This document shows, one piece after another, positions 30,431 through 43,715 of a DNA stretch of 64,000 bases; position 1 is the first letter of the stretch; each line of letters begins with the position of its first letter. A model generated the notes under the pieces. The model worked only from the letters and a program-made list of their open reading frames with translations, was not told where the DNA came from and made no database searches. The stretch is from the NCBI GenBank assembly GCA_963666215.2, contig CAXWPL010000002.1, positions 448,001 through 512,000 of the forward strand, given 5' to 3'. A program made the position numbers and the translations under genes. The DNA is from Acidobacteriota bacterium. GTDB lineage: Bacteria > Acidobacteriota > UBA890 > WLXD01.

Positions 30431-31795
<1,365 letters not shown>

Positions 31796-32154: not shown

Positions 32155-33198
32155 TGTGTTTTCTAAATAGGTTGTTCACATCGGGGCTCACTTCTGAGAT
32201 CAATGGGGTTGTTCCACGACTCCACGAACTCAGAAGGAGCGCCCGATGCAGCTGCATGGTAATGCCCGCACGACGCCGTATATACGCCGCGAGATGGTCC
32301 GCCGGGTCCGGGAGCAGGCGGAGCCTGTGACGGAGACGGCGGCGGCTCTGGGCGTGTCGACTCGAACGGTCTACAAGTGGCTGGGTAGATACGAGCAAGA
32401 AGGTGAAGCCGGGCTCTTGGATCGATCCAGCCGGCCGCAGGGCTGTCCGCACCGCACCGCCACCGGAGTTGTGCGGCAGATCGACAAGCTGCGGCGTCGA
32501 CGACTGACCGCTTGGCAGATCAGCCAGAGGCTGTCAGTGCCACGCTCCACCGTCTCGGCGTGGTTGAGCCGGCTGGGGCTCGGGAAGCTCGATGTTCTGG
32601 AGCCCAAGCCGGCGATCGTGCGCTATGAGTTCAGCCGTCCAGGTGACTTGCTGCACTTGGATACCGAGAAACTGGCCCGTATCCGGCGTCCTGGCCGCCG
32701 CATCCACGGCGATCGCTCCAAGCGGGCCTACGGCGTCGGCTGGGAGAACGCCCACGTCGCTATCGACGATCACTCAAGGGTGGCGTACGTCGAGGTGCTG
32801 TCCGCCGAGGATCAACACACCTGCACTGCGTTCCTGCAGCGAGCCGTCGAGCACTTTGCTTCGATGGGAGTAGCGGTGCGCCGGGTCATGACAGACAACG
32901 GACCCGGCTACGTCTCGAAACGCTTCAATCGCCTATGCCAGCAACTCGAGATCCGGCACATCTACACTCGGCCGTATACGCCCAGAACCAATGGCAAAGC
33001 CGAACGCTTCATCCGCACGCTGCAAGGAGCAGTGGGCCTACGGCACCTGCTACCAGACCTCAGCTCGTCGTACTCGAGTCTCTTCGGCCCTGGCTCAACC
33101 ATTACGATCGCCACCGTCCCCACGCCGGTATCGGCATGACACCGCCGATCGATCGACTCTCAGGGGTGAGTTCATGAACAACCTATTTAGAAAACACA
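32155..33198 (+). mobile_element. IS481-family insertion sequence, copy 2 (1044 bp)
   Basis: Perfect 24-bp TIR TGTGTTTTCTAAATAGGTTGTTCA; flanks CCTAGG / GCTAGG; close homologue of copy 1. Confidence 0.93.
32246..33177 (+). pseudogene. IS481 transposase with two +1 frameshifts near the 3' end
   Basis: Aligns to copy 1; extra bases near 33022 (ACGCTGCAAGG vs ACACTCAAGG) and near 33080. Confidence 0.8.
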
Positions 33199-33290: not shown

Positions 33291-33863
33291 TCAGCAGGTC
33301 GTCAGCTTGAACTCCACCGGCACCGCCCGCGAGACGATGTCGTAGACCGGAGAGTGCAGCGCCAGTTCGGTGAGATCCTCTGCCGAGGCCTCGCTCTTGA
33401 CGCGCATGTTGACCGTGACCTTGTTGAAGCCCTTGCGCACGTCGTCGGACATGCCGAACAGGCCGCGGACATCCATGTCGCCGGTGTACGACGATTCGAC
33501 TGCTTCGATCCGGATGCCGCCCACGGCTGCGTGGGAAACGAGCGTCCCGGTCAGACAGCTGGCCAGCGCGTGCAACACATACTCCATCGAGTTTGGCGCA
33601 CTGTCCTGACCCGCGGCGATCGACGGCTCATCAGCATCGAGAGTGAAGGCATCTTCGCGCGTGGTGTCTTCCGTGTTACCGGCGAAGAAGTCCTTGATCC
33701 GGCTGCGGCTCAGGCCGCCGTTGATCCACTGGTTGGTGGCGCGGAACTGGAAGCTGGCGTAGCCCGAGTCCGCCTCGATCGAGCCGATCACGTCCATGAG
33801 CTGGCCGACGTCAACTCCGTTCGTCAGCTGAGCCTTTTCTTGGGGTGCAACGCTGGTCGTCAT
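33291..33863 (-). CDS. OsmC-family protein
   Basis: NGVDV, FQFRATNQW, ADEP...G.D.APN.MEYVLHALASCL, SPVYD. Confidence 0.85.
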   Translation of the reverse strand: MTTSVAPQEKAQLTNGVDVGQLMDVIGSIEADSGYASFQFRATNQWINGGLSRSRIKDFFAGNTEDTTREDAFTLDADEPSIAAGQDSAPNSMEYVLHALASCLTGTLVSHAAVGGIRIEAVESSYTGDMDVRGLFGMSDDVRKGFNKVTVNMRVKSEASAEDLTELALHSPVYDIVSRAVPVEFKLTTC

Positions 33864-34010: not shown

Positions 34011-34718
34011 ATGGCGGGTTACGGGCAGTTCTGCCCGGTGGCGAAGGCGACCGAGATCATCGATGGAAAGTGGACAGTGTTGGTCCTGCGTGAGCTCTTC
34101 TTAGGCACCACGCGATTCAACGATTTCCAGCGTGCGATCTCGCGCATGTCGCCGACCCTGCTCACGAAACGGCTCCGACACCTCGAGGAATGCGGCATCG
34201 TCATTCGCAAGAAGCTTTCGGGCCAGAGGGGCTACGAATACCGCTTGACCGGGGCCGGCAAGGAGCTCGGCCCGCTGATCGAGATCCTCGCGGTCTGGGG
34301 CATGCGCTGGGCGCGCGGTCAGCTGACGGATGACGAGCTCGACGTCGAATTCCTGATGCGGGACCTGCAGCGGCGGCTACAGACCGAGCATCTGCCCGAC
34401 GGCGAGACCGTCATCTGCTTGAAGTTCGACGAGCTCACGAAGCACAAGACCTGGTGGCTGCTCGCAGACGGCGACGTGGTCGACCTGTGCACCGAGAACC
34501 CGGGCAAGGAAATCGATCTCTACATCAAGTCGACCGTGCGCACGATCGTCGAGGTCTGGGAGGGCGACCTCGACATGCGCGCGGCGCTGCGCAACAAGTC
34601 GATCGTGGCGCTCGGTCCGCGCCATCTTGTTCGCACCATGCCAGACTGGTTCGGCGTCTGTCTGTACAAGGACGTCCGGCGAGGGGACCCCCAACTCATG
34701 CGGCAAGCCGCTGAGTAG
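34011..34718 (+). CDS. HxlR-family transcriptional regulator with C-terminal domain
   Basis: YGQFCPVAKATEI..KWT..VLREL..G..RFND, EYRLT..G; GGAGAGG SD. Confidence 0.9.
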   Translation: MAGYGQFCPVAKATEIIDGKWTVLVLRELFLGTTRFNDFQRAISRMSPTLLTKRLRHLEECGIVIRKKLSGQRGYEYRLTGAGKELGPLIEILAVWGMRWARGQLTDDELDVEFLMRDLQRRLQTEHLPDGETVICLKFDELTKHKTWWLLADGDVVDLCTENPGKEIDLYIKSTVRTIVEVWEGDLDMRAALRNKSIVALGPRHLVRTMPDWFGVCLYKDVRRGDPQLMRQAAE

Positions 34719-34888: not shown

Positions 34889-37800
34889 CTAATCACGGCC
34901 GAAGAGTTCGTAGGCGGCGGGAAGGATGAACAGGGTCAGCACGGTCGACGTCAGCAGGCCCCCGAGGACGACCTGGGCGAGCGGCGCCTGAATCTCGTTG
35001 CCGGCCTCGCCGCCGCCCATCGCCAGGGGGATAAGCGCCAGGCCTGTGGTCAAGGCGGTCATCAGAATCGGTGCGAGCCGGTCGATGGAGCCCTGGAGGA
35101 CGGCTTCATCCCGGGGCACCCCCTCGCGTGCCAGGTCGTGGTAGCGGGTGACCAGCAGGATGCCGTTGCGGGTGGCGATTCCGAACAGGGTGATGAACCC
35201 GACGATGGAGGCGATGCTCAGCACCCCGCCGGTCGTGAAGACCGTGGCGATGCCGCCGATCAACGCCAGCGGCAGGGAAAGCATCACGATCGCCGCGGAT
35301 CTCCAGTCGCCGAAGGCGGTGAACAGCAACAGCGCGATAGCCGCCAGCGACAGCAGGCTGGTCAGCGAGATCAGCCGGGTCGCCCGGCGCTGGCTCTCGA
35401 ACTGACCTCCGTACTGAATGAAGTACTCCGACGGCAACGCCACCTGCGCCTCCACCCGCGAGCGGACGTCGTCCACGACCGAGCCGACGTCGCGATCGAC
35501 GACGTTGGCCGACACCACAATCTTGCGCTGGCCGTTCTCCCGGCTGATCAGGTTGGGGCCGCGGTCCTCACGCACACTGGCGAGTTGGCCTAGCGGCACG
35601 AGTCCGCGATCGGTGCGTACCGGCAGCTGCTCGATCGACTCGGGCCGGTCCCTGCCCTCCGGGCGCAGCCGCACCACCAAGTCGAACGCCCGGTCGCCCT
35701 CCCGTACCTGTCCCACCACGCGGCCGCCCACCGCCGCCTCGACTTGATGAATGACGTCTCGCGCTCGCGCGCCGTGTCGCGCGAGCGCGGCGCGATCCAG
35801 GTCGATCTGAAGCTGGGGCACGAAGGCCTGCTGCTCGACCTGGAGGTCCACGAGCCCCTGCACACCGACGCTGGCATCGCGGATCTTGGCGGCGAGGCTC
35901 CGCAGCGTACCGAGATCCGGACCGAACAGCTTGATCGCGATCGCGGCCTGCGTGCCCGAGATCATGTGGTCGATGCGGTGGCCGACCGGCTGACCGATGG
36001 ACACGTTGGTGCCGGGCACGAGCAGCAGGTCGGTGCGGAAGGCGTCGAGGAACTCGTCGCGTCCTCGCTGGCCGACGGCGTAGACGATGTCGATCTCCGA
36101 CTCGTTGGAGCCTTGGGCGTGCTCGGACATCTCGGCGCGCCCGGTACGCCGCGAGGTGGCAGTGACCTCCGGGTGCGAGAGGGCGATCCCCTCGATCATG
36201 CGACCGATCGTGTCGGCCTCCTCGAGGCTCGTGCCCGGCAGCGTCACGGCGTTGACCACCAGCGTCCCCTCGTTGAACTCCGGCAGGAAGGTGCGGCCGA
36301 GCATGGGGGCGGCCGCGATCGCCGCGGCGAGGGCCACGACCCCGACCGCCACGACCACGCCGGATCGGCGCATCGCGAGCCCCAGCAGCGGGCGGTAAGC
36401 CGCCTGCGCCCAAGCCACCAGCGGCGGCTCGTGGGCGCGTGTCCGCGCCGCGCTCGGCAGCAGCAGCACGCAGAGCGCCGGCGTCACCGTCAGCGATACC
36501 ACCAGCGAGGCGAGGATCGCGACGCCGTAGGCGAAGCCAAGAGGCTGCAGCAAACGTCCCTCGACCCCCGACAGGAAGAAGAGCGGCACGAACACCACGA
36601 TCACCACGAACGTGGCGTAGACGATAGGGACGACGACCTCGCGGGCGGCGCCTATGACCGTGGCCTCCGCCTCCGTGGCCTCGAGAGGCCCGTGAGCGGC
36701 CCGCTGCCGGAGACGCTTGTAGATGTTCTCGACGCCGATCACGGCGTCGTCGACGAGGGCGCCGATGGCGATCGCCATTCCACCCAGGGTCATTGTGTTG
36801 ATCGAGATTCCGGCCGCCCACAGGGCCACCACCGTGGCCATCAGCGACAGAGGAATGGCGAGCGCCGAGATCAGGGTCGTGCGCCACGACATCAGGAACA
36901 CGGCGAGCACCAGCACCGCGAGCAGGCCGCCGTCGCGCAGCGCCGCCTCGACGTTATCGATGGCCACCGAGATGAAGTCGGCCTGGCGGAAGATTTGGCG
37001 CTCGAACTGAACGCGGCCGGCAAGACCCGCCTCCAGCAGATCGAGCTCGGCGTCGATGGCCTGCGTGAGCTGGAGGGTGTCGGCGCCAGGTTGCTTCTGC
37101 ACCGACAGCACGACCGCCGGCTGAGCGTTCACCGAACCGGCCCCGATCTGTGGCGCCGGGCCGATCAGGGCTTGCCCCACGTCACGCAGCAGGACCGTTC
37201 CACCCTCACGACGGAGCAGCACGCTGTCGGCCAGCTCCTGGGTGGAATGAATGCGCCCGAGGACTCGCACCGGCAGCTCCTGGCTGCGGCGCACGAGGAA
37301 CGAGCCGCTGCCGGCGTCGTTGGCGTCCGCAACCGCCTCGGCTACGACCTCGAGGTCGAGGCCGTAGGCGCGCAGGCGGGCCGGATCGACCTGAACCTGG
37401 TACTGGCGCACCGCACCCCCGAGGGGCACGACCTGCGAGACACCGGGGACCGCCATCAGGCGGCGGCGGACGGTCCAGTCGGCCACGGCGCGCAGCTCCA
37501 TGTCGTCGAGCGTCTCGCTGCGCATGCCCACCAGCAGCACCTCGCCCATGATCGAGGTAATCGGTCCCATGGCGGGCGGATCGGCGTCCTGAGGTAAGTT
37601 GGCCGTCGCCAGCTGGAGCTTTTCGTTGACGACTTGGCGGGCTCGATAGATGTCGGTGCCCCAGTCGAACTCGACCCAGATGATCGAGATCCCCATCGCC
37701 GACGATGAGCGAACCCGGCGCACCGAGGTGGCGCCGGTCACCGCGCTCTCGAGCGGGAACGTGACGAGCTGCTCCACCTCCTCGGCGGCGAGCCCGTGGG

Positions 37801-37957
37801 CCTCGGTGAGCACGGTCACGGTCGGGGCCGTGAGGTCGGGGAACACGTCCACCGGCAGGGTGAGCGTCGCGTAGCCGCCGGCCGCGAGGAGCAGCACCGC
37901 GGCGGCCAGCACCACGACCCGGCTGCGAACCGACCAGTCGATCCATGACGCGAGCAT
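34889..37957 (-). CDS. CusA/CzcA-family heavy-metal efflux RND permease
   Basis: PVDVFPDL, EEVEQLVTFPLE, TM4 GALVDDAVIGVEN, FLPEFNEG, PILMTAL; His motifs EHAQG and HRIDH. Confidence 0.93.
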   Translation of the reverse strand: MLASWIDWSVRSRVVVLAAAVLLLAAGGYATLTLPVDVFPDLTAPTVTVLTEAHGLAAEEVEQLVTFPLESAVTGATSVRRVRSSSAMGISIIWVEFDWGTDIYRARQVVNEKLQLATANLPQDADPPAMGPITSIMGEVLLVGMRSETLDDMELRAVADWTVRRRLMAVPGVSQVVPLGGAVRQYQVQVDPARLRAYGLDLEVVAEAVADANDAGSGSFLVRRSQELPVRVLGRIHSTQELADSVLLRREGGTVLLRDVGQALIGPAPQIGAGSVNAQPAVVLSVQKQPGADTLQLTQAIDAELDLLEAGLAGRVQFERQIFRQADFISVAIDNVEAALRDGGLLAVLVLAVFLMSWRTTLISALAIPLSLMATVVALWAAGISINTMTLGGMAIAIGALVDDAVIGVENIYKRLRQRAAHGPLEATEAEATVIGAAREVVVPIVYATFVVIVVFVPLFFLSGVEGRLLQPLGFAYGVAILASLVVSLTVTPALCVLLLPSAARTRAHEPPLVAWAQAAYRPLLGLAMRRSGVVVAVGVVALAAAIAAAPMLGRTFLPEFNEGTLVVNAVTLPGTSLEEADTIGRMIEGIALSHPEVTATSRRTGRAEMSEHAQGSNESEIDIVYAVGQRGRDEFLDAFRTDLLLVPGTNVSIGQPVGHRIDHMISGTQAAIAIKLFGPDLGTLRSLAAKIRDASVGVQGLVDLQVEQQAFVPQLQIDLDRAALARHGARARDVIHQVEAAVGGRVVGQVREGDRAFDLVVRLRPEGRDRPESIEQLPVRTDRGLVPLGQLASVREDRGPNLISRENGQRKIVVSANVVDRDVGSVVDDVRSRVEAQVALPSEYFIQYGGQFESQRRATRLISLTSLLSLAAIALLLFTAFGDWRSAAIVMLSLPLALIGGIATVFTTGGVLSIASIVGFITLFGIATRNGILLVTRYHDLAREGVPRDEAVLQGSIDRLAPILMTALTTGLALIPLAMGGGEAGNEIQAPLAQVVLGGLLTSTVLTLFILPAAYELFGRD

Positions 37958-37969
37958 CGGTCTCTCCGG

Positions 37970-39547
37970 TTAGTGGGAGTGGGCGGGCGCTGCGTCCGGC
38001 GACAGCGCCGCGAGCCGGACCTGGTAGGCGCCGGTGGTGACGACGCGATCGCCTGGGCTCAGACCCGAGACCACCTCCACCAGGTCGCCCTGGCGGATGC
38101 CGGTGGCGATTGCCCGCTCCTCGAACGTCTCGCCGCCCAGCTGGAGGTACACCACCTGCACCCCGGCGAGGTCGATGATCGCCGCGGACGGGATCGCGAC
38201 GACGGTTCGCGCCCCGCCCACGTGCAGGCGAGCTACGGCGCTCATCCCGGGGCGGAGGGTGGCGCTGGCGCCTCGCAGCTCGTAGCGCACCGGGGCGGTC
38301 CGGGTCGTCGCGTCGAGCTCGACACCGAGCTCTAGTAGTCGGCCACCGACGATCCATTCGTTCTGCCCGGCAGTCGAGCGCACGGCCGTAGCCGGCCGCA
38401 GGGCGAGGGACAGCACCTCGCCGCTGCGTCGCGCCTTCAGCAGCTCCTGGAACTCCGGCTCTGGCACCTCGACCCGCGCCACGAGAAGGTCGAGGTCGAC
38501 GATCCGGAACAGGGTGCGGGCCGGATCGACCGGCTCGCCGCGTGTGACGTGGACCTCGGCCATGATCCCCCCCATCGGCGCCAGGATACCGAGACCGTCC
38601 TCGACCGACCCGGCCGCCGACACAGCCGAGGCGCGGTTCTGCAGGGCGGCCAGCCCCGCACGGGCGTTCTCGAGGGCGATCTCCGCCTCGTGCAGGCGAC
38701 GCGCGGGGACCGCGCCGGCATCGACCAGCCGGCTCGCGCGAGCATGCTCACGCTCCGATTCCGCTACGCGGTTGTGAGCCTCCACGAGCTCCGCGGGCAA
38801 CGTGTGCCATCCCGCGATCGACTCCGGAAGCGGCGTCAATCGACCGAGCAGCTGACCGCGACGGACGGCGGCACCGGGAGACAGCAGGCCGGAGTCGGGC
38901 GCTTCGAAGAATCCGGCAGCCGGCGAGGCCACCAGTGCCGTACCGCTGGGATGAGCCTCGATCGTCGCGGGCAACTCCAACGACTCTTGAAGTGGCGCCG
39001 CGGCAGCGGCCACGGTGGCGAACGGAATGCGCCACTGCTGCTCCTTGAGAAATCCGATACCAGCGGGCTCGGAGGGCGGCGCGTCGAGCTCTCCGACCGA
39101 GGAGGCCACTCTGACGTCCCACGCCACTTCGTCGATCGCGCCAGTCGGGGAGGTGTACACGAACCTCAGCCGGGCGTTCCCCGCCGTCTCCGGTCGGATC
39201 GCCGGCAGGAAGATCCCGGAGCGGGCGACCGAATCGACGCCGACCTGCTGTCGCGCGGCTCCCGAGGAGTCCAGCAGGCTTACGTCGAGCCGACCCGCCT
39301 CGACGGCTCGAAAGTCGCCCAGCTCAGTCAGATGAGCGGCGATCTCCGCCTCCTCTCCGACGACGAACAACGGGTGCTCTACGAACCACTCATGGGTATC
39401 GGTCCACCGTGTTTCGACCCGGGAGGGCCGTTCCTCCTCGGCCTCCTGTGACTCGGAAGCAGAGTCGGGACGGCCACAGGCGACTAGCGCAAACAGGAGG
39501 AGAAGGGCAGTCACCACCGATCGCGTCGACAGGAGATTCCGAGTCAT
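37970..39547 (-). CDS. RND efflux periplasmic adaptor (lipoprotein)
   Basis: Lipobox LVAC, ILAPMGG, LRPGM, GLSPGDRVVTTGAY, C-terminal HSH; ATG overlaps tolC stop. Confidence 0.9.
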   Translation of the reverse strand: MTRNLLSTRSVVTALLLLFALVACGRPDSASESQEAEEERPSRVETRWTDTHEWFVEHPLFVVGEEAEIAAHLTELGDFRAVEAGRLDVSLLDSSGAARQQVGVDSVARSGIFLPAIRPETAGNARLRFVYTSPTGAIDEVAWDVRVASSVGELDAPPSEPAGIGFLKEQQWRIPFATVAAAAAPLQESLELPATIEAHPSGTALVASPAAGFFEAPDSGLLSPGAAVRRGQLLGRLTPLPESIAGWHTLPAELVEAHNRVAESEREHARASRLVDAGAVPARRLHEAEIALENARAGLAALQNRASAVSAAGSVEDGLGILAPMGGIMAEVHVTRGEPVDPARTLFRIVDLDLLVARVEVPEPEFQELLKARRSGEVLSLALRPATAVRSTAGQNEWIVGGRLLELGVELDATTRTAPVRYELRGASATLRPGMSAVARLHVGGARTVVAIPSAAIIDLAGVQVVYLQLGGETFEERAIATGIRQGDLVEVVSGLSPGDRVVTTGAYQVRLAALSPDAAPAHSH

Positions 39548-40827
39548 CGTGTGACCGCCTCTCCGGCCGTCTGTCCCGACGCCCACTTCCAGGTGAACCA
39601 GGAGGAGGCTCGACGCCGCTCGAGCTCGATTCGTCGCGAAGCCGCTTCGAGCGACGCACGCACCGTGTCGAGCAGCGCCACCACCTGCATCTCACCTTCC
39701 GCGTAGGAGACCCGCGCCATCTCGATCAAGCTCGGTCCCGGGACTTCGCCCGCGTCACGAAGGGCAGCGGTCGCGAGCTCGTATTCGCCCAGAGCTACCC
39801 GACTCCGCGCCACGAGCTCGCGGTCGAACATCTCGACCCGCTGTCGCCTTCGACGCTCCTCTACTGCGGCCGCGGCTGCCGCGTCCCGGTTGCGGTCGAA
39901 CAGCGGCACCACCGCGCCGATGCTCAACACGAAGCCCCCGTAGCCCGGGTCGACGCGGCTGTAGCCGGCATTCACGATCAGGTCCGGAAATGCCTGTCGT
40001 CGCGCGAGCTTCTGCTCGAGATTCGCCTGATGCGCGCGCTCCATCTCGGCGAGGATCTCCGGACGGGAGTCGCGAGCCTCCTCCAGACTTCGAGTCGTCT
40101 CTGTCTCCTCGGTCGCGGCCCCGGCGGGCTCGTCGAGAGGTGGCGGCCCCCCGGGCTCCGCGTCAGGAGCGCGCGTTTCCCAGCCTGCTGCCGGAGGCAC
40201 CAGTCCGGTCAGGGCCTCGAGCCGTATCGAGCCTGAACGCCGCGCTTGATTCGCCTCCGCCGCTTGCACCTCGAGCGCTTGCACCTCGAGGAACATCCGG
40301 CCGACGTCGAAGTCACTCACGTCACCCTCGGCGTTGCGCAGCTCGAGGTCACGCAGCAGGGAGCGACCGACGTCGAGCGCGGCCCGGATCGCCTCGTGTC
40401 GGCGCTGTGCGGCGTACAGCTCTACGTATTCCTGTTGCACCCGCAGCGTCAGCACGGCGCGGACCGCTGCCGCGTCCCTCTGCGACGCACGCTGCTTCGC
40501 CTCGGCCACGTCGACGGCGATTCCGGTGCGGCCCCCGATGGGCAGACTTTGCGACACGCTCACGATCAGCTGGTCGGCGCCGGGAACGGCGTTCGGGAAC
40601 CGCTCCTGATACACGGTTACCAGCGGGTTCGGCCAGCGACCGGCTTGATCAGCGCGGTGACCGGCGACCTCAGCGGCGAGGAGCGCCGCGGCCAGCTCCG
40701 GGTTGTGCTCCTCGACGGCGGCCACGGCGCTGGCCAGCATCAGGGTCGAAGAACTCTGGGAATTACCGGTGGAAGGCGCCAGCAGGAGCAGCACGAGAGC
40801 TCCGACGACACCGCGCGAGATCGACAT
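39544..40827 (-). CDS. TolC/CzcC-family outer membrane efflux protein
   Basis: Signal peptide, HNPELAAA, WPNP, SRPEI, PLFDRN, SYAEGE; first gene of the tripartite operon. Confidence 0.88.
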   Translation of the reverse strand: MSISRGVVGALVLLLLAPSTGNSQSSSTLMLASAVAAVEEHNPELAAALLAAEVAGHRADQAGRWPNPLVTVYQERFPNAVPGADQLIVSVSQSLPIGGRTGIAVDVAEAKQRASQRDAAAVRAVLTLRVQQEYVELYAAQRRHEAIRAALDVGRSLLRDLELRNAEGDVSDFDVGRMFLEVQALEVQAAEANQARRSGSIRLEALTGLVPPAAGWETRAPDAEPGGPPPLDEPAGAATEETETTRSLEEARDSRPEILAEMERAHQANLEQKLARRQAFPDLIVNAGYSRVDPGYGGFVLSIGAVVPLFDRNRDAAAAAAVEERRRRQRVEMFDRELVARSRVALGEYELATAALRDAGEVPGPSLIEMARVSYAEGEMQVVALLDTVRASLEAASRRIELERRRASSWFTWKWASGQTAGEAVTR

Positions 40828-40831
40828 GCGT

Positions 40832-40907
40832 GCCCTCCGCGGGCTGAGCGTGGTTCAACGGGCGAGGCGGTGTGTCCGGCGTGACCGGACGGGCTCAGAC
40901 GGAGGGC
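40832..40907 (-). promoter_or_regulatory. SD-sequestering mRNA structure between leader ORF and tolC
   Basis: mRNA GCCCUCCG (40907-40900) pairs with CGGAGGGC (40839-40832, contains SD); CUGAGC/GCUCAG second helix; inner 6-bp hairpin 40874-40890. Confidence 0.65.
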
Positions 40908-41335
40908 GCCGGTGGTCCGCGATCAGGAGTCGATCGTCGAAGTCGCGCGCGCGGCACGCAGACGTCGACATCGCCGACCGATGAGCCTGAAGGCGCATCC
41001 TGGCCAACGATGGAAGGCTGCACTGCTCGCCGAGGTTCGCTCGGCCGCTCGCGGAGTGGAGTCACTGTGCTCGTCGACCGCACGACGCCGTCCCGATCAT
41101 GAAGCAGCGTCATCGGAACGATGCGGACCGGCGCCAGCTCGATTCGGCCGGCGGCCACCGCGGCTTCCTCGTCGGTCGGGCGCTCGCCGTGGTGGTGCGG
41201 TAGGCCGCTACCGTGCGCGTGAACCCGATGACCCGCGCCGGGCGGCTCGCCCGTGTGTACGTGCGCGCGTCCGGTCACTGGAACGCACACAACCGCGAAA
41301 GCCAGGAAACCTACAGCGACGAATCGGATCCGCAT
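40895..41335 (-). CDS. His-rich exported leader protein with C-terminal RGPP motif (DUF2946/CruR-like architecture)
   Basis: MRIRFVAVGFLAFAVVCVPVTGRA signal; HVH..HRVHAH..HHH; ends DRGPPAPSV*. Confidence 0.65.
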   Translation of the reverse strand: MRIRFVAVGFLAFAVVCVPVTGRAHVHTGEPPGAGHRVHAHGSGLPHHHGERPTDEEAAVAAGRIELAPVRIVPMTLLHDRDGVVRSTSTVTPLRERPSEPRRAVQPSIVGQDAPSGSSVGDVDVCVPRARLRRSTPDRGPPAPSV

Positions 41336-41799
41336 GCGCGCAAGGTACCACGCGCTCGAAACCACCGCGCTTGGTCAAGTCGCGACGCTATACGTGCCCT
41401 GTCTCGGTCCGCGGGAGCGGTCGATCGCGTTTCCGGTCCCGGCTCCGGGCACCTGTGCGACGGGCCGCTTTCGCATCGAGACCTCGCGAAAACTGATGGC
41501 TATCTGATTGCCGCTTCGAGGCGCGCGAGCTCGGGGTCGGCGATACACGGTTGCGTGAAGTGTTCGAGGCCCGCGTGGCTCGGCGCTGAAAGGGCCGCTT
41601 CCGCGCCCCTCCTGCTGGCAGTAGACGGACCGCACGGCGGATCGCCAGCATGCAGCGACGGTCGCGGTCGCTTCCGTCTCCTGCATGTCGGCACTAAGCC
41701 GCGTCAGAACATCGGTTATCGAATCGAAATACTCAGTGGTCATCCCGCAACTCCTCGGCATAATCGGCCATTTCGAGATCCCCGGGCCACTCGGAGCCG

Positions 41800-41962
41800 G
41801 CGCGGAAGTTGGGGCGCGGACGATTCGCTCGTCTTCGGATCGGCCAACACCGAGCTCATGCGGATACCCGCCGGCGGAGGAAACTGGGAAGAGCTGACGA
41901 CGCCGGCCGCGGGAGAGTCACACAGCTGGCCTTGGTACCCTGCTGGACTTGTACGTTTATAA
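41800..41962 (+). pseudogene. fragment resembling the beta-propeller region of Ser/Thr kinase/TolB-like proteins
   Basis: GSWGADDSLVFGS...LMRIPAGGG...LTT...GESHSWP; no start or remainder. Confidence 0.45.
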
Positions 41963-41977
41963 TCTAGATTCTAGAAT
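41949..41977 (+). promoter_or_regulatory. sigma70-like promoter with overlapping palindromes (putative PadR operator)
   Basis: TTGTAC-N17-TAGAAT; overlapping perfect palindromes AATCTAGATT (41961-41970) and ATTCTAGAAT (41968-41977). Confidence 0.55.
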
Positions 41978-42016
41978 ACAGAATCACGACAGAAGAGCCC
42001 TATCCGAGACACCGAG

Positions 42017-42361
42017 GTGATCGCGACGATGACAAGAACGCGGGTCGGCGAATTCGAAGAGCTCATCATGCTGGCGATCCGAGCCCTGGACGATGCCGCC
42101 TCTTGCCGAGCGGTGCAGACCATGCTCGAGGAGCGCGCCGAACGCGCCGCTTCGCTCGGCTCGATCTACGCGACAATCGACCGCCTCGAGCGCAAGGGGT
42201 ATGTCGAATCGTGGGTGGACACACCCGCCGAAGGAATTGCTCGGCGGGGACGATTCCACCGGGTGACGACCGACGGGGTGGACGCTCTCGACGGCATGGA
42301 CCGCATTCGCGACTCGCTGCGTGAGGGCGCATTTTCGACGGGGGCACCCCGCGGTGAATAG
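42017..42361 (+). CDS. PadR-family transcriptional regulator
   Basis: VGEFEELIMLAI, SLGSIYATIDRLERKGYVES; start may be ATG 42029. Confidence 0.88.
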   Translation: MIATMTRTRVGEFEELIMLAIRALDDAASCRAVQTMLEERAERAASLGSIYATIDRLERKGYVESWVDTPAEGIARRGRFHRVTTDGVDALDGMDRIRDSLREGAFSTGAPRGE

Positions 42362-43715
42362 GACGGCTCCGCGCACCCTTGTCGGCCTGGCCAGGATTGC
42401 GCTGGGCGTCACGCGCCATCACCGGCGTGACGAGGCTCTCGACGATCTGCAAGAGCTGTATGGCGACATCGCGTCGACACGAGAGGTCGCGGCTTCACGC
42501 AGGCGGTTCCTGGACGAGCTCACTCGACTTTGTTTCTGGGCGCTCGTCCGGCACCTGCCGAGCGGCGCCCGACCGGCTACTCCCCCACGTTCCGCCAGTC
42601 TCGGGCCCGCTCCCCGGAGGAACCCGACAATGCATGTGCTCACTGATCTGCGGTTTGCCTTCCGGTCCCTGCTACGCAATCCCAGGTTCACGATTACGGC
42701 CACGCTCACCGCGGGAATGGCAATCGGTGCCAGTACCGTCGTCTTCAGCGCGGTCAACGGCATCCTGCTCAAACCTCTCGATCTGCCTGAGCCTGAGCGG
42801 GCGGTCTACGTGTCAACGCACGAGTCGGCCGGCGTGACCTCCAAGCCCATCTTCATCGACTGGAATCGGCAGGTGACCGCATTCGAGCTGCTCGCGGGCT
42901 TCGGGCCGGACTCGCTCGTGATCGCAAACGATGAACAGGCCGAGCAGATCAGTGCTGTTCGCGTTAGCCCCGACGTCGTGGAACTGCTGGACGCACAGTT
43001 CATTCTGGGGGGGCCTTTCGCTGCCGACGATCACGAGACCGGCGCGGAGCCGGTCGTGATCCTGTCGTACTCGTACTGGATTCGGGCAATGGCCGCGGCG
43101 ACCGACGTAATTGACAAGGCGATCTTCGCGGCCAATGATGAAGGCGGCCGGCAGCCCTACCGCATAGCGGGTGTGCTGGCCGAGGATGTCACCCTGCCGG
43201 CTGCGACGAATCTGGGCGAACGAGACATCTGGCTCCCCCTTCATGTCGACGAGACTGCCCGCGCCGGCAATCGCGGCAGCTCTACGACTCGTGTGATCGG
43301 TCGAGTTGCTGAGGGGCGCTCGATCGCTGAAGCGCGCATCGAAGTCGAGCGGGTGACTGAGGCGATCTCATCCGAGCATGGTCGCGAAGACAGCGCCCAC
43401 GTAGTTCGATTACTCGATAGGACGGTCGGAGGCAGCCGCGCGGCCTTGTGGATGCTGCTTGCGGCCTCCGGCTTTCTCCTGCTCGTCGCGCAGGCCAACG
43501 TCGCGAACCTGCTGCTCGCTCAGGCCACGACGCGCGGGGCCGAGTTCGCAGTTCGCTCTGCCCTCGGCGCCGGACAAGGGCGGGTCCTGGGCCAGGTTCT
43601 AACCGAGAGCGTGGTCTTGGGCTCTGTCTCCGGCGTGCTGGGCGGATCGATCGCCTACGGCGGAGCGTGGCTGGAAGAGCGCCGACGGGCATCAACGAGC
43701 GATCAAGGAAGTTGA
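42354..43715 (+). pseudogene. ADOP/MacB-type ABC permease, 3'-truncated
   Basis: DLRFAFRSL.RNP.F, VFSAVNGILL.PL, NVANLLLA...EFAVRSALGA...QVLTES; ends after first FtsX block, about half of full length. Confidence 0.8.

Follow-up and report, generated by a model that had tools for sequence, protein, structure and literature searches.

Introduction

Our study concerns a small gene, hereafter the leader, that lies directly upstream of a heavy-metal efflux operon of an Acidobacteriota bacterium (GenBank assembly GCA_963666215.2). It was studied in a stretch of 64,000 nt from contig CAXWPL010000002.1 (positions 448,001 to 512,000), referred to as the window, whose own numbering is used throughout. 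The leader encodes a putatively exported protein that ends in RGPP plus four residues, and its last codons are complementary to the Shine-Dalgarno (SD) sequence of the next gene, which encodes an outer-membrane efflux protein (OEP). We think it fairly likely that this operon, which codes for heavy-metal RND efflux, has a cis-acting metal sensor of the CutF-like kind built into its first gene.

The closest described system is CutF of Rhodobacter capsulatus (cutFOG), which the main text of PMC9973294 presents as a Sec-exported protein with a CxxxC motif and a proline-rich C-terminus. Copper was shown experimentally to prolong stalling during export, which unfolds a stem-loop that hides the SD of cutO (PMC9973294). 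Among the 5,334 CutF-like proteins of that paper, the commonest downstream neighbour is the OEP of RND systems and most spacers are <100 nt; some clusters carry histidines only, but their neighbouring genes are HupE/UreJ and not OEP (PMC9973294). The paper also counts as CutF-like the CzcI protein of Cupriavidus metallidurans, which is encoded 5' of czcCBA and is without the proline motif. A 2025 preprint extends the CutF model (10.1101/2025.02.05.636593).

A second precedent is CruR (Bp2923) of Bordetella pertussis, in which RAPP stands three residues from the C-terminus, at a conserved distance of 45 aa from CXXC (PMC9426467). Here Rho termination controls a TonB-dependent importer and copper relieves the arrest (OFF) (PMC9426467); the cruR spacer is 162 nt long. 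RAPP and RGPP bring about a strong arrest that resists EF-P, and they are strongly avoided in proteomes unless used for arrest (PMC12992588). They are overrepresented close to the C-terminal ends of small secreted or membrane proteins encoded 5' of metal-related and other genes, and in the arrested state of RAPP peptides the P site holds the first proline codon and the A site the second (PMC12992588). On E. coli ribosomes, RGPP peptides of actinomycetes gave poor arrest (PMC12992588). The terms efflux, stem-loop and Shine-Dalgarno each have no occurrence in the main text of that paper.

The leader and how it compares with described systems

The features of the leader, and of the structure that its messenger RNA (mRNA) forms with the start of the OEP gene, are as follows.

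40895-41335, minus strand: leader gene, 146 codons plus TGA stop, from ATG 41335 (open reading frame list and N-terminal alignment)
41264-41335, minus strand: signal-peptide codons, approximately residues 1-24 (basic n-region, then hydrophobic core)
41255-41263, minus strand: first histidine motif, H-x-H (H25, H27), just past the predicted cleavage region; invariant in 8/8 family members
41189-41221, minus strand: second histidine motif, HAHGSGLPHHH, residues 39-49; H39, H41, G42, G44 and H47 invariant in 8/8 members
40910-40921, minus strand: RGPP codons CGC GGA CCA CCG, presumed arrest motif, R139-P142
40899-40907, minus strand: anti-SD arm GCCCUCCGU, in the A-P-S-V codons; pair probabilities 0.94-1.00
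40893-40898, minus strand: helix 2, 5' arm CUGAGC, across the leader stop; pairs with 40849-40844, probabilities 0.99-1.00
40895-40897, minus strand: leader stop UGA, within the 5' arm of helix 2 (open reading frame list)
40874-40890, minus strand: internal hairpin GUCCGG-loop-CCGGAC, between the two arms (fold)
40844-40849, minus strand: helix 2, 3' arm GCUCAG (fold)
40832-40840, minus strand: SD arm GCGGAGGGC, with the core GGAGG at 40838-40834 (sequence and fold)
39544-40827, minus strand: OEP gene, CzcC/CusC-like, the putatively regulated gene (Pfam OEP, E=3.3e-28)

Counted from an in-frame GTG at 41365, the leader frame stays open for 156 codons, and this start would give 156 aa. ATG 41335 is the likely start and is favoured over the GTG because six relatives and the ortholog in G003, a genome of a different genus in the same family, align from this methionine onward. 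The GC content by codon position agrees with the frame over 41020-41260. The protein consists of a putative signal peptide, two histidine motifs, a disordered, low-complexity spacer of ~90 aa and the tail RGPPAPSV-stop; its top Kyte-Doolittle window is VAVGFLAFAVVCVPV and the hydrophobic core spans 15 residues. The second histidine motif and RGPP are 89 aa apart in the leader and 91 aa apart in its G003 ortholog, despite spacers that are unrelated in sequence. AlphaFold2, given an alignment of eight sequences, returned a mean predicted local distance difference test score of 51.4 and a sole confident helix at residues 2-17, in the signal peptide, and the mature part is predicted to be disordered. 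Synteny with G003 decides that the leader is a real gene. A six-frame scan of the genome found 20 open reading frames (ORFs; minimum 60 aa) in which R[AG]PP lies no more than 10 residues from the stop, and among these only this leader shows an N-terminal signal-like segment by eye.

Judged by its sequence, the leader is a CutF-like leader of the RAPP/RGPP arrest type and represents a new histidine-only family 5' of a CusA/CzcA-type pump, within a class that is itself published. It has the signal peptide of CutF-like proteins (basic n-region and 15-residue core; 8/8 relatives), is shorter than 150 aa with PP within the last 15 residues (146 aa from ATG 41335, PP at 141-142), is followed on the same strand by a gene within 1000 nt (67 nt to the OEP gene) and carries a putative metal motif of Cys/His type in its mature part (two histidine motifs, 8/8). 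A stem-loop that hides the downstream SD, as in the CutF mechanism, is predicted in silico. As with CutF, a small, putatively Sec-exported protein with a putative metal-binding motif and a C-terminal, proline-containing stalling motif is encoded directly 5' of a metal-detoxifying gene, across a short intergenic spacer; by proposal it would act in cis, and by analogy stalling would mean ON and metal would be the inducer. Unlike CutF (CxxxC ~45 aa from the tail, DUF2946, multicopper oxidase downstream), the leader has only histidines, its spacer measures 89-91 aa, Pfam gives no match, and an OEP-adaptor-RND operon follows; its tail is RGPP plus four residues, and the anti-SD lies inside its own last codons. 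The histidine-only clusters of PMC9973294 neighbour HupE/UreJ and not OEP genes, and the present family may already be contained in that paper's lists.

The leader also falls under the sequence definition of the RAPP/RGPP arrest peptides, with RGPP near the C-terminus of a small secreted protein and a same-strand gene downstream. It shares this arrangement with ApdA, ApdP and SLIV_16130 and SLIV_18480 of Streptomyces lividans, and metal-related downstream genes, as found at the leader locus, are common in the group. For these peptides arrest has been shown in vitro and in vivo; for the leader it is presumed. With CruR the leader has in common that it is an exported protein of an upstream ORF, that R-x-P-P stands three to four residues from the C-terminus, that the distance between metal motif and arrest motif is conserved and that poor structure is predicted. 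CruR (importer, Rho, metal OFF, 162-nt spacer, CxxC, member of DUF2946) differs from the leader, which precedes an efflux operon. The DUF2946 (PF11162) hidden Markov model gave no match at E<=1 for the window or the G003 protein and matched 0/8 family members, with the protein of locus L020 as positive control (E=1.1e-4). The leader protein has no CXXC motif; where DUF2946 proteins have CXXC ~45 residues before RAPP, a histidine motif stands 89 aa (here) or 91 aa (G003) before RGPP.

In SecM/secA, MifM/yidC2 and VemP/secDF, as treated in the discussion of PMC9973294, a ribosome stalled near the end of an exported leader likewise opens an SD-hiding helix, and the force of export frees the stall. 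These leaders monitor the secretion machinery and regulate Sec/YidC genes, whereas the present leader carries putative metal motifs and is followed not by a protein-localization gene but by an OEP, an adaptor and a CusA/CzcA-family pump. The SecM/MifM geometry, which a first-pass annotation of this DNA had invoked, holds, with CutF as the closer precedent. Like CzcI, the leader is a small exported protein encoded directly 5' of a czcCBA-type operon; unlike CzcI, which is without a C-terminal proline motif, it has the RGPP tail.

The helix between the leader and the efflux gene

A predicted composite helix joins the end of the leader to the SD of the OEP gene. After RGPP the leader reads GCG CCC TCC GTC TGA (A-P-S-V-stop, TGA at 40897-40895), and GCCCUCCG (40907-40900) is the exact reverse complement of CGGAGGGC (40839-40832); an extra U40899-G40840 pair extends the helix to 9 bp. 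The GGAGG core sits 6 nt ahead of the OEP ATG (40827-40825). Helix 2 (CUGAGC/GCUCAG) is separated from the SD helix by a 3-nt bulge. The composite helix was found in both the minimum free energy and the centroid structures (RNAfold, 116-nt and 221-nt folds) with pair probabilities of 0.94-1.00, and the SD was never unpaired across the ensemble. The first-pass annotation had described RGPP and the 8-bp complement, the pairing of CUGAGC with GCUCAG across the leader stop and the 6-bp hairpin at 40874-40890; all of these are correct to the base, and the helix belongs to the low-energy folds, as that annotation had expected.

The annotation had also allowed that such 8-bp matches might be equally frequent by chance, which was not borne out. 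An exact complement of at least 8 nt over GGAGG, within 76 nt upstream, arose in 121/5000 dinucleotide shuffles (P=0.024), and in the genome such a complement precedes 2/442 ORFs that are led by GGAGG and reach at least 200 aa, the other case lying inside a ferredoxin-like reading frame. Just 442 ORFs of at least 200 aa have GGAGG at 4-9 nt genome-wide; a strong SD thus seems uncommon in this genome, so that the one at 40838-40834 stands out.

The position of the helix relative to the presumed arrest site was then considered. If arrest occurs as in RAPP peptides, so that Pro141 occupies the P site and Pro142 the A site, the distance from the first P-site base down to the anti-SD is 8-15 nt, within the span of mRNA that is covered by a ribosome. 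Forcing the span of the stalled ribosome to be single-stranded abolished the helix, at a cost of ~16-20 kcal/mol, and raised the mean P(unpaired) of GGAGG from 0.00 to 0.27-0.47. A mask for a terminating ribosome also removed the helix, with a mean P(unpaired) of the SD of 0.21-0.28 here and 0.16-0.32 in G003.

Conservation and protein family

Orthologs were sought in the bacterium's own genome and 60 relatives (61 genomes, E<=1e-20). The OEP gene has orthologs in G003 (50% identity), G004 (45%), G018 (40%) and, partially, G024, which with the own genome makes 5/61. The N-terminus of the OEP is kept from ATG 40827 onward in three orthologs, and CGGAGG is also found 5' of the orthologs in G003 and G004; the contigs of G004 and G018 end too near the OEP gene to show a leader. 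In G003, an ORF in the equivalent position has a signal peptide, the same histidine motif and the tail RGPPPLSV-stop, with a leader-OEP spacer of 73 nt, and its protein matches the leader at E=1e-6 in pairwise BLASTP.

Three of the four RGPP codons are changed in G003, all synonymously, which argues for selection on the peptide in the leader frame. In 30-nt windows between RGPP and the hairpin (40925-40871), nucleotide identity is 73-87%, compared with 49% overall; conservation is strongest in RGPP, the anti-SD and the hairpin rather than in the histidine motifs. In G003, too, the SD forms a 9-bp helix with the last codons of the leader, in an unchanged register. Of these nine pairs, three are altered on one side and all are still paired (G-C to G-U, C-G to U-G and U-G to U-A). 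Helix 2 is retained through a shifted GCUC partner, and the hairpin stem is identical, with a loop that differs in length and sequence.

Among strains, the contigs of four runs show four single-base differences over 801 nt, none in the RGPP codons, helix arms or hairpin, which is too few to inform. The variant positions, from three strains, are 40861, 40985 (synonymous), 41106 (Leu to Gln, spacer) and 41308 (Phe to Leu, signal peptide). DNA near-identical to 40700-41500 is present in runs from ~10 studies, including sponge and seawater metagenomes. No RNA run is among the listed holders of this DNA; one run guessed to be RNA covers 40852-41091 only and was not used as evidence.

A profile built from the window and G003 proteins was searched against 1.84 billion cluster representatives (E<=0.001) and gave seven matches, six of which are proteins of 144-167 aa with the layout of the leader; the seventh, P0012, has 1918 aa. 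The six relatives, which come solely from metagenome assemblies and are without names, each carry a signal peptide, the motifs PHxH and HxHGxG-x-H, and R[GA]PP with exactly four residues after it, of which the last is V. In the alignment of all eight sequences the signal-peptide arginine, the histidines of H-x-H and HxHGxG-x-H, the R, P and P of the tail and the final V are invariant. Exactly four residues follow PP in 8/8, and the end is SV in 7/8, the remaining member having RAPP and an NV end. Across the eight members Pfam gave no convincing family match, the lone match being DUF6003 at E=0.025.

The family was found in 2/26 genomes of the class and 2/401 genomes sampled from the phylum (9 candidates scored per genome), namely the own genome and G003; both tallies include G047 and G166, which are flagged as unpublished and on which no specific claim rests. 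The pattern RGPP + 12 nt + TGAGCC occurs in 70/401 phylum genomes, with a similar count for a reversed-pattern control, and the element itself was found only in the own genome (G000) and G003; a few RGPP-polyproline tails are among the 70 loose matches. A search with the single leader protein against a set of 5.8 billion proteins scored 0/288 candidates, and a search of genome contigs with the OEP alignment confirmed 0/594 pattern stretches. No second copy of the leader was found in the own genome. The single-sequence search of the 61 genomes gave, apart from the leader itself, five weak partial matches (E 2.4e-4 to 8.8e-3), some of which contain stops; these were treated as noise.

Proposed mechanism and alternative explanations

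We take the locus to be a conserved switch of translation that is probably functional. In the mechanism that we propose, the leader's last codons (40907-40899) and stop region would pair in free mRNA with the SD arm and the GCUCAG box of the OEP gene, so that initiation at 40827 would be blocked. A ribosome translating the leader would become arrested on RGPP (Pro141 in the P site, Pro142 in the A site) and would thereby sit on the anti-SD; the SD would be released, and the OEP gene and the genes coupled to it downstream could be translated. Sec export of the nascent chain would normally end the arrest by its pulling force. Metal on the exported histidine motifs, or bound before targeting, would prolong the arrest, so that metal would mean ON. 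The arrest at RGPP, its release by export, the metal dependence and the identity of the metal are matters that we infer from CutF and the RAPP/RGPP peptides. The logic put forward in the first-pass annotation, in which metal promotes stalling and switches on a detoxifying gene while uptake leaders do the opposite, agrees with what was shown for CutF/cutO (PMC9973294) and CruR (PMC9426467).

Several observations weigh against this interpretation. The stalled-ribosome mask opens the SD only in part, and to a lesser extent in G003 (mean P(unpaired) 0.00-0.05 without and 0.12-0.33 with the mask, depending on the amount of downstream sequence included), because weaker alternative pairings form in this G+C-rich RNA; of the earlier claim that a stalled ribosome would cover the anti-SD and free the SD, the loss of the helix therefore stands and the release is partial. 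The annotation had also looked to homologues for covariation, and G003 does keep the 9-bp pairing with one-sided changes, but no two-sided compensatory changes were found between the two sequences compared (n=2). The conservation of the helix is thus a matter of consistency and not proof by covariation, since there are two sequences only and an SD cannot vary freely. The total folding energy is ordinary for the G+C content (z of -1.0 and -0.7 for the 116-nt and 221-nt folds). The spacer of 89-91 aa, compared with 45 aa in DUF2946, means that the sensing geometry of CutF is not simply transferable. On the side of the gene, GC by codon position gives a flat signal in the final third of the ORF (40900-41020), there is no obvious SD before the leader's own start, the protein has no Pfam or NCBIfam family match, and the single-sequence search missed even the true homolog in G003.

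Under plain translational coupling, any ribosome that reaches the leader stop would melt the helix, RGPP would merely slow it, and the histidine motifs would serve a mature periplasmic protein. This explanation stays alive because the terminating-ribosome mask, too, removes the helix and partly frees the SD; helix 2 spans the leader stop codon, and the OEP and adaptor genes are themselves coupled through an ATGA overlap, as read by eye. We nevertheless regard coupling as unlikely, as it leaves unexplained why R[GA]PP is followed by exactly four codons in 8/8 members, why the spacer length is conserved and why the protein is predicted to lack a fold, and the avoidance of RAPP/RGPP in proteomes outside arrest (PMC12992588) speaks against a motif that merely slows the ribosome. 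Attenuation of transcription in the manner of CruR, whose RAPP, three residues from the C-terminal end, acts in this way (PMC9426467), would have a ribosome stalled at RGPP block the loading of Rho on the leader-OEP spacer, with the helix as a secondary matter. The 67-nt spacer is C-rich (31 C, 20 G) and no intrinsic terminator was found, as such a model would have it. However, the spacers are short (67 and 73 nt, compared with 162 nt for cruR), the spacer is not G-poor and is almost wholly base-paired, the SD is specifically sequestered by codons beside the arrest site, and the CruR logic of metal as OFF fits uptake and not efflux; we hold attenuation to be quite improbable.

We give least credence to the view that the leader is an ordinary periplasmic metal-binding accessory protein of the pump, its RGPP tail and helix being without a regulatory role. 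Histidine-rich secreted proteins do occur in czc-type operons, CzcI is a CutF-like protein 5' of czcCBA without a proline motif (PMC9973294), and the fold z-scores are unremarkable. Against such a role, nucleotide conservation peaks at RGPP, the anti-SD and the hairpin and not at the histidine motifs, helices of this kind are rare in the genome, disorder is predicted for the mature part and the tail motif is invariant across the family.

If the leader is a CutF-like sensor, as we favour, the locus would be a clean and conserved instance in which a nascent exported protein senses metal at the level of translation, 5' of a heavy-metal RND pump, in a lineage and protein family that go unnamed by annotation pipelines. 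It would also provide a concrete case in which codons past an arrest point double as an anti-SD. It would hold no surprise for a specialist, since both the mechanism in general and its connection with efflux genes have been published. The locus nevertheless offers a compact system in which to test how, in CutF-like leaders, the binding of metal beyond the membrane is relayed to the peptidyl-transferase centre and whether spacer length matters. It also suggests that small unannotated ORFs 5' of efflux operons deserve systematic annotation.

Genomic neighbourhood

The operon comprises three genes on the minus strand, in the order OEP, adaptor and RND pump, with the leader ORF directly upstream. 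Beyond the OEP gene, its features are as follows.

37970-39586, minus strand: membrane-fusion (adaptor) protein gene (Pfam HlyD_D23; NCBIfam RND_mfp, 134 bits)
34889-37957, minus strand: heavy-metal efflux RND pump gene (Pfam ACR_tran, E=5.9e-260)

The likely start of the adaptor gene is an ATG near 39547 that overlaps the OEP stop (read by eye). The pump belongs to the CusA/CzcA family (NCBIfam TIGR00914, 783 bits compared with a cut-off of 701). No two-component or MerR-type regulator adjoining the operon was seen among the annotated neighbours. On its 3' side lie genes for an HxlR-type regulator (34011-34718, plus strand), an OsmC-like protein (33291-33863, minus), an IS481-type transposase (32246-33139, plus) and a chromate transporter (30431-31657, minus).

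On the 5' side, no recognizable gene was found in the ~950 nt ahead of the leader (41366-42320). The window has a G+C content of 66.5%, and a patch of lower G+C lies 5' of the leader at ~41860-41980, where the operon promoter might be situated. Scans of 40700-42100 detected no promoter-like (sigma-70-like) site on the minus strand and no intrinsic terminator, and no Rfam family matched 40500-42600 at E<=1. The leader-OEP spacer, whose composition is given above, is nearly all base-paired.

Similar tails elsewhere

Public genomes and metagenomes were scanned for RGPP followed by two codons and UCC-GUC-UGA-GC. The anti-SD core in the matches is present by construction, because the pattern fixes these letters. 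The genome scan gave 13 loci, of which eight have, by reading, open frames of 126-481 aa with hydrophobic segments, and at these eight an SD follows, together with the start codon of a protein that is secreted or membrane-bound, 49-86 nt downstream. The metagenome scan gave 11 loci, six of them alike in layout to the genome loci. The hosts are Thermoleophilaceae, an alphaproteobacterium, Zoogloea/Accumulibacter, Kocuria and a planctomycete. No close relative of the leader locus is among the 13 and 11 scan loci, so these hold no covariation data for the helix.

When nine loci were folded, the SD paired with exactly the same last-codon positions in six (the window locus, G003, three Thermoleophilaceae and the alphaproteobacterium), and this was not seen in L020, L024 and L025. 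The tail with an SD in the same register sits on unrelated sensor domains in Actinomycetota and Alphaproteobacteria, and the recurrence of the pairing is suggestive only. Residues past the arrest point do not belong to the arrested chain. Their conservation could reflect either pairing of the RNA or a signal for degradation of the protein once it is released.

More speculatively, and in our view on balance doubtful as a whole, the leader may found an unannotated family of histidine-only RGPP-arrest sensors, which has no Pfam or NCBIfam model and comprises about a dozen metagenomic proteins. Its 'ruler' of ~90 aa would place the sensor well outside the translocon at arrest, which would suggest a mode of sensing, and possibly a metal (Zn, Co or Ni, not Cu), unlike that of CutF. 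The tail of RGPP plus four codons ending in UCC-GUC-UGA might further be a portable cassette, with the post-arrest codons conserved as RNA (the anti-SD) and not as peptide.

The scan loci themselves are varied. Thermoleophilaceae-type multi-pass membrane proteins of ~194 aa that end in RGPPxxSV-stop are found at L013:6920-7504, L018:2171-2752, L019:3181-3765, L062 and L066; a gene for a small secreted protein lies 49-50 nt downstream, its SD is paired to the final codons of the gene before it, and the downstream gene in L019 is cupredoxin-like (Pfam E=4.4e-6). In Zoogloea/Accumulibacter (L020:460-828, L023:1392-1760, L059 and L061), a 122-aa protein with a CxxC motif ends in RGPPLSSV-stop; it is DUF2946-like, at the E-value of the positive control above and just under the Pfam cut-off, and an exported protein of unknown family begins 86 nt downstream. 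A planctomycetotal metagenome-assembled genome (L025:2506-3366 and 1764-2453) has a long ORF that ends in RGPPARSV-stop, 52 nt 5' of a gene with a prepilin-type N-terminal methylation motif, in a context that is not metal-related. Further RGPPxxSV-stop ORFs, with unrelated N-terminal domains, occur in an alphaproteobacterial metagenome-assembled genome (L015:7433-7870), in Kocuria marina (L024:1005-1382) and on the metagenome contigs L056 and L060, of which L056 is Cys- and His-rich.

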